Shown piece after piece: positions 16,960-20,539 of a stretch of 64,000 nt of DNA. The position numbers and the translations under genes are program-made. How positions within the stretch are numbered: the first letter of the stretch is position 1; every line of letters starts with the position of its first letter. Source of the DNA: Deferribacterales bacterium (GTDB lineage Bacteria > Chrysiogenota > Deferribacteres > Deferribacterales > Geovibrionaceae). Below the pieces are notes generated by a model. It worked only from the letters and a program-made list of their open reading frames with translations. It did no database searches and was not told where the DNA came from. The stretch is from NCBI GenBank assembly GCA_050253075.1, contig JBFWJS010000002.1, forward strand, positions 544,001-608,000. The letters run 5' to 3'.

Positions 16960-19050
16960 ATGACCAATAAAATACTCAGGGGGGCTTTTGCCCCTCTGCT
17001 TTTATTCATAATACTTTTTGCGTTTTCCGCCTCGGCGGGCATCATCTCAGACATGCAGGTAAAGAACCTCTTCCCAAAGGTGACAGACCTCGAAGGCGGC
17101 GCAGAGCTGTGGCTCAATACAGGCATTCGCAGCAAGACAGAGGAGAACCACACGGTTTTCTCCACCACATATTCATTCTACAGCGGTAAAGATAAGAAGA
17201 TGATGAACATCGTCCGTAAAGGACAGTATGAGACAAACATCGCTCTTTACTCATTCAACAACTTTGTCGATGCTTCAATGTATTTCCACGAGCTGACAAA
17301 GGACGCACCGAAAAACCGCAGTCAGCAGGTGCGATTCGGCGAAAGGGGGCTCTTCTTCCTTTATCCGAAATCCGGCTATATAAACGATGCGGATTTTTAC
17401 CTTGTTTTCATCAATAAGACATTCGTGGTGTGGATACATTCCAACGACGGATTTGCACTCATGGACATAGCAAACCCTATAAACGACAACCTCGATGCCT
17501 TCATAATGAACAACACAGAGATGTACCTTATAAAGAAACTCCATCTGGAAGCCTATGCCGAAGGATATGAGATACAGACGAAAGCCATCGAATTCACAAA
17601 CGAATTCCCCGCAAGCATAAAGGTCAGCGGAAAGGTGTTCACAAAAGACCTCGACCCTATGCCTGCGGCCACCGTCAACATACTCGAGACAGGCGACAGC
17701 ATCCTCACGGACAGCAGCGGCTATTTCGAACACACCATAGAGCTCGACGGCATCAGCGACATAGAGCTGGCGGAAAACTTTTACCTAGACTATGACAAAG
17801 CGTCGAAGATGACCATGTTCAAAGGCGGTTTCTTCGAAAGCGGGCTGAAGTATAACTCCGACGGGAAACTGCGAAACCAGATATGGAAGCTGGAGACAGC
17901 GGGCGAAAAGGTCTTCGGCACTTCATACGTCAAAACATCTCAGGGCTATAAAGGCTATCAGATAAAAGGTACGGCAACGGACGAAGGGATCGAGCTGACC
18001 CTCGACTGCAGGCGGGCCGGCTCAGACTTCGGCTGTGAGCAGATATTCAAAGGAAAGCTGAAAGGGAACGGCATCGAAGGCGAATGGAGCGGGACAGGCG
18101 GCGGAGGCGTATTCAAAGCCGACATGGGCGAATACCGTCCCGTGGAGCGCAAGATCATACTCACACAAAAGACCGCACAGACAAAGACTTTCGGCGTAAA
18201 TGCCGAAGGCAAACTGCTGAAATCATCCGAAAACCTGCTGAACATAGGCGCCAGCCGTGACAGCATAGCAATGATATATGTAAAGCCTAAGAGCGAGGCT
18301 CTCGAGATAGACCCTATAAAGAACATCTCGGCGAAGCTGGTGCTGACCCACCTGCCGGACGACCAGAGCGGACGGATATCACTCTTCAAATACAGTCTGC
18401 GCTATGTAGGAGCACAGGCATACCTCGGCGACAGTAGCTACGCAGGGCAGATATACCCCAGCGAAGAGCCGTATAAGCTGGAGATAGACATAACCGACAT
18501 GCTCGAAAAAGGCGACGGAAGCATCGTCATAGGCGGCGTTCCCGAGGCGGGGAGCACGGGCAACCATAACTTCTCCACCTCTCAGGCGATGTACGACACC
18601 CTGAAGCCATACATAGTGATAACAGAATATGCCAAAGACGGCGGAAAGCAGACAGTGATAAAGCCTTTTGTCATGATAAACGAGCCGAAGAAATCCGCAG
18701 ACCTCATAGGCGACAGAAACCGCCCGGGGAAAGACGGCACAGACGACTATTGCTATGACGCAGTTTTCTCATATCCGGGTAAAAAGCTGACAGGATTCGA
18801 GCTGGAGATAACAGGCGACATCAAGCGCAGGTACAATACCAATCCACTTGACATTTACCCACTGGTAGGATTTATTAATACCAGCGGCAGCCTGCTGAAC
18901 GACAGTAAGGGAGCCCTTGATCACACTTTTGAAAAGAATGCCGAAAAGCTCGGCATATGCATTAACGGCTCTTACGTTCCGACAAAAACAGACAGAATCT
19001 CATACAAATATTATATAGACGGCAGACCTGTGGAAGGACTGCTGAATTAG
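16960..19050 (+). CDS. Secreted multidomain protein of unknown function (696 aa)
   Basis: Sec signal peptide (..FAFSASA); carboxypeptidase-regulatory-like segment VSGKVFTKDLDPMPAATVNI..TDSSGYF; beta-rich remainder. Confidence 0.8.
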   Translation: MTNKILRGAFAPLLLFIILFAFSASAGIISDMQVKNLFPKVTDLEGGAELWLNTGIRSKTEENHTVFSTTYSFYSGKDKKMMNIVRKGQYETNIALYSFNNFVDASMYFHELTKDAPKNRSQQVRFGERGLFFLYPKSGYINDADFYLVFINKTFVVWIHSNDGFALMDIANPINDNLDAFIMNNTEMYLIKKLHLEAYAEGYEIQTKAIEFTNEFPASIKVSGKVFTKDLDPMPAATVNILETGDSILTDSSGYFEHTIELDGISDIELAENFYLDYDKASKMTMFKGGFFESGLKYNSDGKLRNQIWKLETAGEKVFGTSYVKTSQGYKGYQIKGTATDEGIELTLDCRRAGSDFGCEQIFKGKLKGNGIEGEWSGTGGGGVFKADMGEYRPVERKIILTQKTAQTKTFGVNAEGKLLKSSENLLNIGASRDSIAMIYVKPKSEALEIDPIKNISAKLVLTHLPDDQSGRISLFKYSLRYVGAQAYLGDSSYAGQIYPSEEPYKLEIDITDMLEKGDGSIVIGGVPEAGSTGNHNFSTSQAMYDTLKPYIVITEYAKDGGKQTVIKPFVMINEPKKSADLIGDRNRPGKDGTDDYCYDAVFSYPGKKLTGFELEITGDIKRRYNTNPLDIYPLVGFINTSGSLLNDSKGALDHTFEKNAEKLGICINGSYVPTKTDRISYKYYIDGRPVEGLLN

Positions 19051-19058
19051 AGGAACAG

Positions 19059-19205
19059 ATGGAAGATTATATCGGGTTGATCATCTTCGTGGTTCTGGTC
19101 TTCGTACTGGCTAAGCTAAAGCCGGGCGCAGGCTGAGGCCCAAATGCAGACAGCTGCAGTATCGAGGATCGATACAAAAAACAGAAAAAAGAAAAAAAGA
19201 AGTAA
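19059..19205 (+). CDS. Small single-pass membrane protein with in-frame TGA at codon 26 (candidate selenoprotein)
   Basis: RBS GAGGA; MEDYIGLIIFVVLVFVLAKLKPGAG-[TGA 19134-19136]-GPNADSCSIEDRYKKQKKEKKK-TAA. The read-through frame ends exactly at the base before the hemW GTG. Confidence 0.62.
19145..19175 (+). promoter_or_regulatory. Candidate bacterial SECIS hairpin(s)
   Basis: Tandem stems TGCAG-ACAG-CTGCA (19145-19158) and GTATCGA-GGA-TCGATAC (19159-19175); the G-starting loop begins 29 nt after the TGA. Confidence 0.5.
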
Positions 19206-20297
19206 GTGAAAGGTTTATACGTACATATCCCCTTCTGCCGTAATAAATGCGCTTATTGCGGATTCTACTCCGAGACAGACAGCTATGGGTCACAGCTCGA
19301 ATACTTTCGGGCTATGATAACAGACCTGAAATCGAGGGAAAAGAAACGCTACGACTCCATATATATCGGAGGCGGGACACCGTCCACGGCGGATAAGAAG
19401 ATGCTGGCGGCATTCACGGACATAGTGTCCGTTCTGCAGGCGGGGGATTCGAAAGAAACCACAATAGAGGCAAACCCAGAGAGCATCGACGAAGATTTCT
19501 GCCGTATGCTCCACGATTATAAATTCAGCCGTATCAGTATAGGCTGTCAGAGCACCGACGACGGCGTGCTTAAAATGCTCACACGGATACATTCCGCAGC
19601 CGACATCACAAAGGCATACGACACGGTGCGCAGGTTCTGCCCCGACATAGCGGTAAATCTGGACATGATGTACGACATCCCCGGCACAGATTTCGACACA
19701 AGCCATAAAACGATGAAAGACATCATAGCCATGGATCCCGAGCATATATCCGCATATACCTACAGCCACGACACCGACTTTCTCAAAGCGACGGACGACG
19801 ACACGACGGACTTTATGATTGTCCGTGAGGGGCTGGAGGACGCAGGGTATATCAAATACGAGATATCCAACTTCGCCAAAAAAGGGCACGAGAGCATACA
19901 TAACATAAACTATTGGCAGCTTGGGGATTATGACGGCATAGGCGCATCCGCATGGAGCCTTATAAACGAAAAAGACAGACGCATACTCAAAGGCAAGACT
20001 GACAATATAAAAGAATATATAGCAGACCCCACCGCTTTCAAAGAGGTGGAGATAACCGAAAGCCCGAAGATGGAGTACGAGAAGATAGTCTTCGGACTGC
20101 GTATCATCGGCGGTGTAGACGTCGGAACGATCTGCATGAATTTAGATGCAGAGATAAAGGAAAAATTGTATAATTTATTAATACAGCTAGCAGAACAGGA
20201 GCTGATAACATGGGATGGATCAAAGGCGGCATTAACAAAAAAGGGCGAGCTCTTGCTCGACTCTGTGCAATATTTATTATGGGAACAGCTGCCGTAG
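19206..20297 (+). CDS. hemW: Radical SAM heme chaperone HemW (HemN-like)
   Basis: LYVHIPFCRNKCAYC (CxxxCxxC), YIGGGTPS, TIEANP, YEISNFA, HNINYW. Confidence 0.88.
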   Translation: MKGLYVHIPFCRNKCAYCGFYSETDSYGSQLEYFRAMITDLKSREKKRYDSIYIGGGTPSTADKKMLAAFTDIVSVLQAGDSKETTIEANPESIDEDFCRMLHDYKFSRISIGCQSTDDGVLKMLTRIHSAADITKAYDTVRRFCPDIAVNLDMMYDIPGTDFDTSHKTMKDIIAMDPEHISAYTYSHDTDFLKATDDDTTDFMIVREGLEDAGYIKYEISNFAKKGHESIHNINYWQLGDYDGIGASAWSLINEKDRRILKGKTDNIKEYIADPTAFKEVEITESPKMEYEKIVFGLRIIGGVDVGTICMNLDAEIKEKLYNLLIQLAEQELITWDGSKAALTKKGELLLDSVQYLLWEQLP

Positions 20298-20539
20298 CAG
20301 CATATGCCGGATGTGCCGGCGACTGCATGACATGCCATCCAAAGCTGGAAGGGAGCACTGACCATCTGGCACTGAAAAACTGTATTTCCTGTCACACGCC
20401 TTCGACAGAAAAACTCTTTGAATTTGGCGGCGGCGCAGCAGAGGAATGCGGAAACGACTGCTTTCAGTGTCACCAGCAGTGGCCTGCGGACGGGAATCAC
20501 GCTCCGCTCGACACATGCCAGAGCTGTCACCAGAAATAG
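20210..20539 (+). CDS. Small periplasmic tetraheme cytochrome c
   Basis: RBS AGGAG; signal peptide ending AYA; four CxxCH motifs (CMTCH, CISCH, CFQCH, CQSCH) in about 76 mature residues. Confidence 0.88.
   Translation: MGWIKGGINKKGRALARLCAIFIMGTAAVAAYAGCAGDCMTCHPKLEGSTDHLALKNCISCHTPSTEKLFEFGGGAAEECGNDCFQCHQQWPADGNHAPLDTCQSCHQK

Follow-up and report, generated by a model that had tools for sequence, protein, structure and literature searches.

A predicted 48-residue membrane peptide of Deferribacterales, very likely read through an in-frame TGA, as a likely divergent branch of a widespread predicted selenoprotein family

We report a short open reading frame (ORF) with an in-frame TGA that, judging from its conservation, is very likely a real selenoprotein gene and likely a divergent branch of a widespread family. 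It lies in a 64,000-nt stretch of a Deferribacterales genome (the window, meaning the whole stretch analyzed), between a gene for a 696-residue protein and hemW. SelB would almost certainly bind a GGA-loop hairpin in the transcript and insert selenocysteine (Sec, U) at codon 26. The product would be a very short, membrane-anchored addition to bacterial selenoproteomes, hidden in roughly half of the genomes sampled from two phyla. The features of the locus in the window are as follows.

16960..19050, plus strand: 696-residue protein of no recognized family by family-model scans, probably on the same transcript as the peptide
19050..19054, plus strand: ribosome-binding site GAGGA, read from the sequence, sharing the last base of the upstream stop
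19059..19205, plus strand: unannotated 48-codon ORF interrupted by TGA, its product predicted to be a selenopeptide that crosses the membrane once (translation, homologue conservation)
19065..19115, plus strand: predicted transmembrane helix, residues 3 to 19 (AlphaFold and hydropathy)
19134..19136, plus strand: inferred Sec codon TGA, codon 26 (U26); TGA in 29/29 close homologues and in 90/90 wider-family loci read, the latter a related, non-random draw
19155..19157, plus strand: partner Cys33 (U-x6-C), invariant in alignment A1
19176..19202, plus strand: lysine-rich tail of unconserved sequence, carrying a net positive charge in 83/119 members
19206..20297, plus strand: hemW (TIGR00539 passed with 216.5 bits, cut-off 205.4)

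The preliminary description had read a 48-residue ORF with TGA as codon 26, preceded by a ribosome-binding site and filling the gap between its neighbors exactly. Our translation agrees, GAGGA was located at the position listed, the ATG starts 8 nt past the upstream stop (19048-19050), and the TAA at 19203-19205 abuts the hemW GTG at 19206. Purine-rich stretches also lie ahead of the starts in the 29 close homologues. A promoter scan gave chance-level signals only, and matching RNA amounted to two low-share runs from one sample, with one 240-nt contig that falls inside hemW, the ORF lying outside it.

The clean transmembrane helix of the preliminary description was borne out by hydropathy (best 19-residue Kyte-Doolittle mean, 2.25) and by AlphaFold, which modeled a helix over residues 3 to 19 with pLDDT values of 82 to 84 over residues 1 to 20; the loop with U26 and C33 was modeled at low confidence (pLDDT, 52 to 58). 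By the positive-inside rule, the charge pattern of such a peptide implies a cytoplasmic C terminus. Because the N terminus is acidic and the C-terminal side basic, we hold with good confidence that the predicted helix anchors the peptide N-out/C-in, which would leave U26 and C33 next to the membrane in a flexible loop rich in Gly.

Strong matches to the peptide (E at most 7.5e-7) were recovered from 29 of 61 related genomes, spread over five genome families; 18 further weak rows (E of 0.02 or worse) were left out as chance, and profile searches of the related genomes added no member beyond the 29. As the preliminary description had anticipated for a true selenoprotein, all 29 carry TGA at the aligned codon and keep both the frame and the hairpin past it. 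The Cys follows four or six residues after U and is invariant, succeeded by S-[IV]-E-D-R-Y, in an alignment of 28 of the 29. The U-x6-C arrangement proposed earlier holds for the window and 11 relatives, all of the window's own genome family (f1), and is confined to that family (12/119 members overall); the other 17 Deferribacterales have x4. This U-x6-C branch is likely, from its sequence, to be a divergent one, newly described here.

The genome that contains the window is 99.9% complete and has selA, selB, selD, and tRNA-Sec, the last being its sole tRNA with a TCA anticodon, so the possibility raised at the outset that the Sec machinery might be missing fell away. Its selD itself carries an in-frame TGA, followed after 17 nt by a complementary 5-bp stem with a GGC loop (a stem read from the sequence; the minimum free energy [MFE] fold drew a different structure). 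Across the 61 related genomes, 27 have both the ORF and selA, 2 the ORF only (genomes 73% and 87% complete), 1 selA only, and 31 neither. Kin are not independent, and genus g3, from the window's own family, is therefore the telling case for co-loss. Its four genomes (99 to 100% complete) lack selA, selB, and the peptide gene; the upstream gene is kept and runs within about 20 nt into a kdsA-like gene, and the peptide ORF is thus cleanly deleted in this sister genus. One genome (G020) has selA, selB, and the upstream gene and lacks the peptide. No diverged or Cys form was found by profile search in the Sec-less Deferribacterales searched, nor among the 150 of 192 matches listed. The Deferribacterales branch amounts to a clean natural experiment: the gene goes with Sec decoding and is deleted in its absence, in genera that are cultured and non-pathogenic, so that both Sec insertion and function can be tested directly. 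As a separate observation, a partial selB match (model positions 1 to 343) lies at positions 1116 to 2141 of contig C30 in genome G021, whose family is otherwise without selA and selB.

Two hairpins follow the TGA, as follows.

19145..19158, plus strand: first hairpin, found by folding, unconserved, overlying variable columns and probably incidental
19159..19175, plus strand: Sec insertion sequence (SECIS) candidate with a 7-bp stem and the loop GGA at 19166-19168, 29 nt past the UGA (conservation and covariation)

Both hairpins of the preliminary description do fold, the second with the 7-bp stem, GGA loop, and 29-nt distance it had given, and the region past the UGA that holds both reaches -16.2 kcal/mol (z, -4.45), a value that none of 200 shuffles equaled. 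Conservation is limited to the second, which is the SECIS candidate; the alignment columns under the first vary among the 29 homologues. Limits for bacterial SECIS elements, given in the accessible part of a 2026 review (PMC13188914), are a loop of 3 to 9 nt with G in its first two positions, a stem of 4 to 16 bp, a spacing of 16 to 37 nt, and an MFE of at most -7.5. The second hairpin lies within these limits when its MFE is taken over the region with both hairpins (-13.1); the apical (second) hairpin by itself scores -5.9. Its 3-nt loop starting GG, 7-bp stem, and 29-nt spacing resemble those of bacterial genes with such elements, and the product is unlike typical bacterial selenoproteins in being very short (48 residues) and without a thioredoxin fold.

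By itself the hairpin is weak evidence for Sec. A lenient hairpin rule was passed by 117 of 656 (18%) long TGA-ending ORFs of the same genome, 27 of the 656 had a hairpin as strong as the window's, and a naive genome-wide scan for UGA plus hairpin yielded 705 candidates and was uninformative. Conservation is more telling. Of the 29 close homologues, 28 share the 17-nt hairpin letter for letter, and the remaining one has a single A-U to G-U change that keeps the pair. A SECIS-type hairpin occurs in 112 of the 117 distinct members, whereas shuffled sequences had one in 14% of cases and synonymously recoded ones in 15.5%. Compensatory changes were seen at 7/7 stem pairs in the wider family, where 79% of positions paired versus 26 to 40% when the stem was slid, in a covariation set of 41 members hand-chosen as alignable x4-type sequences; over all 83 distinct x4 members, unselected, pairing was 60 to 94% per pair. 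Since the SIEDRY residues vary freely across the wider family and the pairing persists, their conservation in Deferribacterales is probably in part a by-product of the RNA stem.

The wider family, to which a bridging clade links the window peptide, was reached through a scan of 185,579 genomes for a conserved octapeptide, which gave 18 confirmed loci out of 27 stretches. Four of these lie outside Deferribacterales, in genomes that all have selA, and share the hairpin and tail with a different N-terminal half. A profile that included these four loci detected the family in 146 of the 401 genomes from their phylum, the second one sampled, and a broader profile in 183 of 401. At least five peptide-bearing genomes there are without a selA match, and selA, present in 371 of the 401, is too common in this phylum to discriminate. 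The aligned codon was TGA in all 90 loci read, which were the top 30 plus 60 hand-picked from the remaining 118 of 148.

Over the 119 members assembled, the frame past the TGA was open for at least 11 codons in every case, whereas the two other frames closed sooner in 42 and 63 members. The spacing from U to Cys is x4 in 83, x5 in 19, and x6 in 12 members, with no Cys there in 5, and the 114 Cys residues are encoded by both TGC (73) and TGT (41). Terminal stops are mixed (TAA, 56; TGA, 40; TAG, 23), and the stop at the U position is always TGA.

A protein-database search with 64 members returned 1,021 matches. At the U position, 63 of the 120 matches listed end, 37 have Cys, and 20 have Trp, and the Cys homologues that the preliminary description had looked for thus exist, at least as protein records tied to the window peptide via the bridging clade. 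One of those listed is named from Thermostilla marina, and some carry an extra Cys. A profile (A3) run against 1.84 billion representatives had two matches (P0007 and P0008), both with Trp, and the Trp forms are probably gene calls made under genetic code 4. A DNA-motif scan of metagenomes recovered 17 stretches, of which 13 are members and 4 match by chance in another frame. The window peptide itself, used as a direct protein query, found nothing, plasmid and phage collections gave no match to the one Cys homologue used as query for each, and a profile search of the PDB stayed at chance level (E of 0.57 or worse). None of the 64 members scanned passed a Pfam or NCBIfam cut-off, curated selenoprotein models included (best E, 0.008). 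Databases hold the family in shortened form, and no family model covers it. One 123-member cluster in the ESM Atlas (score, 0.88) is a lead only.

Homology of the window peptide to this wider family is likely, on sequence grounds, although transitive and resting mostly on the C-terminal half, because only the bridge profile lifts the peptide above background. Main-family profiles built without the bridging clade gave the window ORF 3.5 to 8.6 bits, within background (top, 9.8). A profile of nine bridge sequences ranked it first of 61,458 genome segments (18.1 bits; E, 0.006; next, 12.9), and the bridge sequences themselves score 77 to 83 bits on the main-family profile and 63 to 70 on the Cys profile. 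The 17-nt hairpin is identical between the window branch and the bridging clade.

The wider family has already been predicted, in a deep-Sep data file (Data S1), and we found it in the data file of that one paper only. Its six entries have a hydrophobic N-terminal helix, Sec about 30 residues in, and a short charged tail, and compared by eye they show the LP[KR][LM]G[VI]xT-U-[ML]xxxC pattern of the wider family, the LP[KR][LM]G[VI]xT core being a description that we drew up from those six. The window peptide fits the layout of helix, then U, then Cys, with Cys six residues past Sec instead of four. The window branch is without the W..L[NQ]..[IV]LP[KR]LG core and has KLKPGAG before U. The deep-Sep supplements hold no Denitrovibrio, Deferribacter, or SIEDR entry, and the family name is absent from Table S1 of that paper, from the accessible parts of the 2026 review (PMC13188914, including its Table 1), and from those of a 2022 review (PMC9312934). 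A literature search found no paper on the window peptide or on the Deferribacterales form.

We estimate a probability of roughly 45% that the peptide is a membrane-tethered, cytoplasm-facing Sec/Cys redox switch or electron carrier that handles thiol or sulfur stress. Held in the membrane N-out/C-in, with U26 and C33 on the cytoplasmic side, it would use U26 to attack an oxidant, a persulfide, or a partner disulfide, and C33 would resolve the product into a Se-S ring; thioredoxin would then re-reduce this ring, perhaps with the Cys...Sec tail that ends an FmdB-type zinc-ribbon protein as intermediary. We give this scheme as a whole a little less than an even chance. According to the accessible part of the 2026 review (PMC13188914), redox selenoproteins usually pair Sec with a resolving Cys close by. 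In layout only, the peptide as predicted also resembles eukaryotic SELENOK and SELENOS, with differences in that its Sec would come right after the helix, not near the C terminus, and its SECIS candidate lies inside the coding region. Those two are single-pass membrane proteins with Sec on a disordered cytoplasmic tail.

Genomic neighbors in the wider family, from a survey in which 150 of 165 flanking ORFs were scanned, seem to point to thioredoxin-linked thiol or sulfur chemistry. Thioredoxin lies upstream of the peptide at loci L208 and L210 and downstream at L151 and L155, and redoxin, CcdA/DsbD, DsrE, rubrerythrin, ArsR, and MerR recur with no fixed operon. At L206, DsrE is among the upstream genes running into the peptide gene, beside what we take to be sulfide:quinone oxidoreductase-like and TusE/DsrC-like genes in a sulfur-handling operon. 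At L209, ArsR and two further genes, presumably hgcA-like and hgcB-like (mercury methylation), follow on the peptide strand about 300 to 2,300 nt downstream of the TGA.

A candidate partner for the redox switch is an FmdB-type zinc-ribbon protein, which passes TIGR02605 (56 bits; cut-off, 31.3). Among 90 wider loci, 35 carry its gene on the peptide strand no more than 700 nt from the peptide gene, either upstream (18) or downstream (17), and the other 55 have none nearby; five genomes counted held one to nine copies of the zinc-ribbon family each. All 34 complete neighbors have a TGA with just one or two residues left before the stop, and 32 of them a SECIS-type hairpin. The window genome (G000) has such a gene on contig C6 (142930 to 143133, minus strand; L226:3431-3634), directly behind trxA and ahead of feoA/feoB-like genes, with the tail Cys-Gly-Ser-Gly-Phe-Ser-TGA-Ala-Pro-stop and a SECIS-type hairpin; it is probably a second hidden selenoprotein. 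This differs from the FmdB-family selenoprotein of the GOS metagenome, as presented in the accessible part of its report (PMC2398784), whose representative has U inside the zinc-ribbon CxxC; here both Cys of each CxxC pair are kept, and the TGA comes at the very C terminus, one or two residues before the stop.

Zinc-ribbon matches were found in 25 of the 61 related genomes, and 24 of 26 loci parsed end in a TGA tail. In Deferribacterales, 22 of the 24 TGA-tailed genes, the window genome's copy included, stand behind thioredoxin. The zinc ribbon is present in 23 of the 29 peptide-bearing genomes and absent in 6, two genomes have it without the peptide, and in the window genome both it and trxA are remote from the peptide gene. 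In family f6 (L252 in G027 and L253 in G020), the zinc ribbon that follows thioredoxin has a tail rich in Cys that stops at TAG or TAA, and a second copy elsewhere has a TGA tail. It is possible, if doubtful, that many anaerobic bacteria use a two-selenoprotein relay from thioredoxin through the zinc-ribbon Cys...Sec tail to the membrane U-xn-C peptide, which would handle reactive sulfur or oxidants at the inner membrane face. On the equally tentative relay view, Deferribacterales would keep it with the genes unlinked, and the peptide would be lost outright without Sec decoding, with no Cys switch. Should the link to the zinc ribbon and thioredoxin be true, the pair would form a new minimal membrane redox module.

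The neighbors fit metal handling about as well as redox chemistry. The same selenopeptide could bind a soft metal or metalloid (Hg, Cu, Cd, or As) through its Sec/Cys pair as a chaperone, sink, or sensor, a reading that we consider unlikely but well short of negligible. It gains from the flexible, variably spaced U/C pair and the extra Cys in some Cys homologues, from an ArsR gene no more than 1.5 kb away in 9 of 90 loci (four of them with overlap or direct contact), from MerR, NikR, and DUF364 neighbors and the block that follows the peptide at L209, and from the feoA/feoB-like genes behind the window genome's zinc-ribbon gene. No transporter or metal ATPase recurs as a neighbor, however, the U/C spacing differs from the CxxC of HMA domains, and two ArsR neighbors have sulfur-sensing BigR as the closest named subfamily model, not CmtR, with all such scores below cut-off.

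It is rather improbable that the peptide serves a single membrane or exported protein as accessory subunit or redox modifier, the candidate here being the upstream 696-residue protein. That protein has a signal-peptide-like N terminus and a weak CarboxypepD_reg-like stretch with no other family match, and homologues occur in all five genomes tested. A similar gene lies directly upstream of the peptide in f1, f3, f4, and f8, and within about 30 nt of it in four of the five genome families; the peptide anchor also weakly resembles ATP synthase b/b' models (E of 0.003 to 0.013, far below cut-off). Against this, the 696-residue-type gene stays where the peptide is lost (g3 and G020), f2 has alaS-like or other genes upstream, and no such gene occurs in wider-family loci.

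A selenium-sensing leader or regulatory peptide, in which read-through versus termination controls the next gene or the two forms signal Se, has a small chance of being correct. In f1 the peptide gene ends right at the start of the following gene or overlaps it, and the hairpin is unusually invariant. We reject this reading because the gene that follows differs among close relatives (kdsA-like, hemW, lnt-like, and others), because it lies on the opposite strand in 54 of the 86 wider loci that have one, and because the Cys homologues have no UGA to sense with.

Least probable, with only a slim chance, is that the UGA is a true stop ending a 25-residue peptide, a nonsense mutation, or a Trp codon, with the hairpin a terminator or operator. 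Databases do hold the shortened form and the Trp form, the hairpin is a DNA palindrome, and hairpins follow 18% of the ordinary TGA stops of this genome. The first two options, which the preliminary description had kept as alternatives, fit poorly with a U-position stop that is TGA in 119/119 members next to mixed terminal stops, a conserved frame with a Cys in either codon, and loss of the gene together with selA and selB, and a Trp codon fits poorly with tRNA-Sec as the sole TCA-anticodon tRNA. We rejected the terminator or operator in particular, since the palindrome occurs once in the genome, no T-run follows it on either strand, and its sequence varies while pairing is kept.

Two further candidates were discarded. 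Lipoproteins have a basic n-region and a lipobox directly after the hydrophobic stretch, and a lipoprotein with Sec/Cys at +1 is at odds with the acidic N terminus, the charged spacer, and the mostly Thr or Gly residue before U. A RiPP precursor with a radical SAM enzyme fails in that the adjacent gene passes the HemW chaperone model and adjoins the peptide in only 3 of 29 genomes (G000, G001, and G002), where an intervening gene, presumably kdsA-like, is missing; most f1 genomes have that gene, and it separates hemW from the peptide. hemW is an incidental neighbor and not part of the system. Farther along the window, a small multiheme c-type cytochrome-like ORF (20210-20539) overlaps the end of hemW and is followed by a hemerythrin gene.
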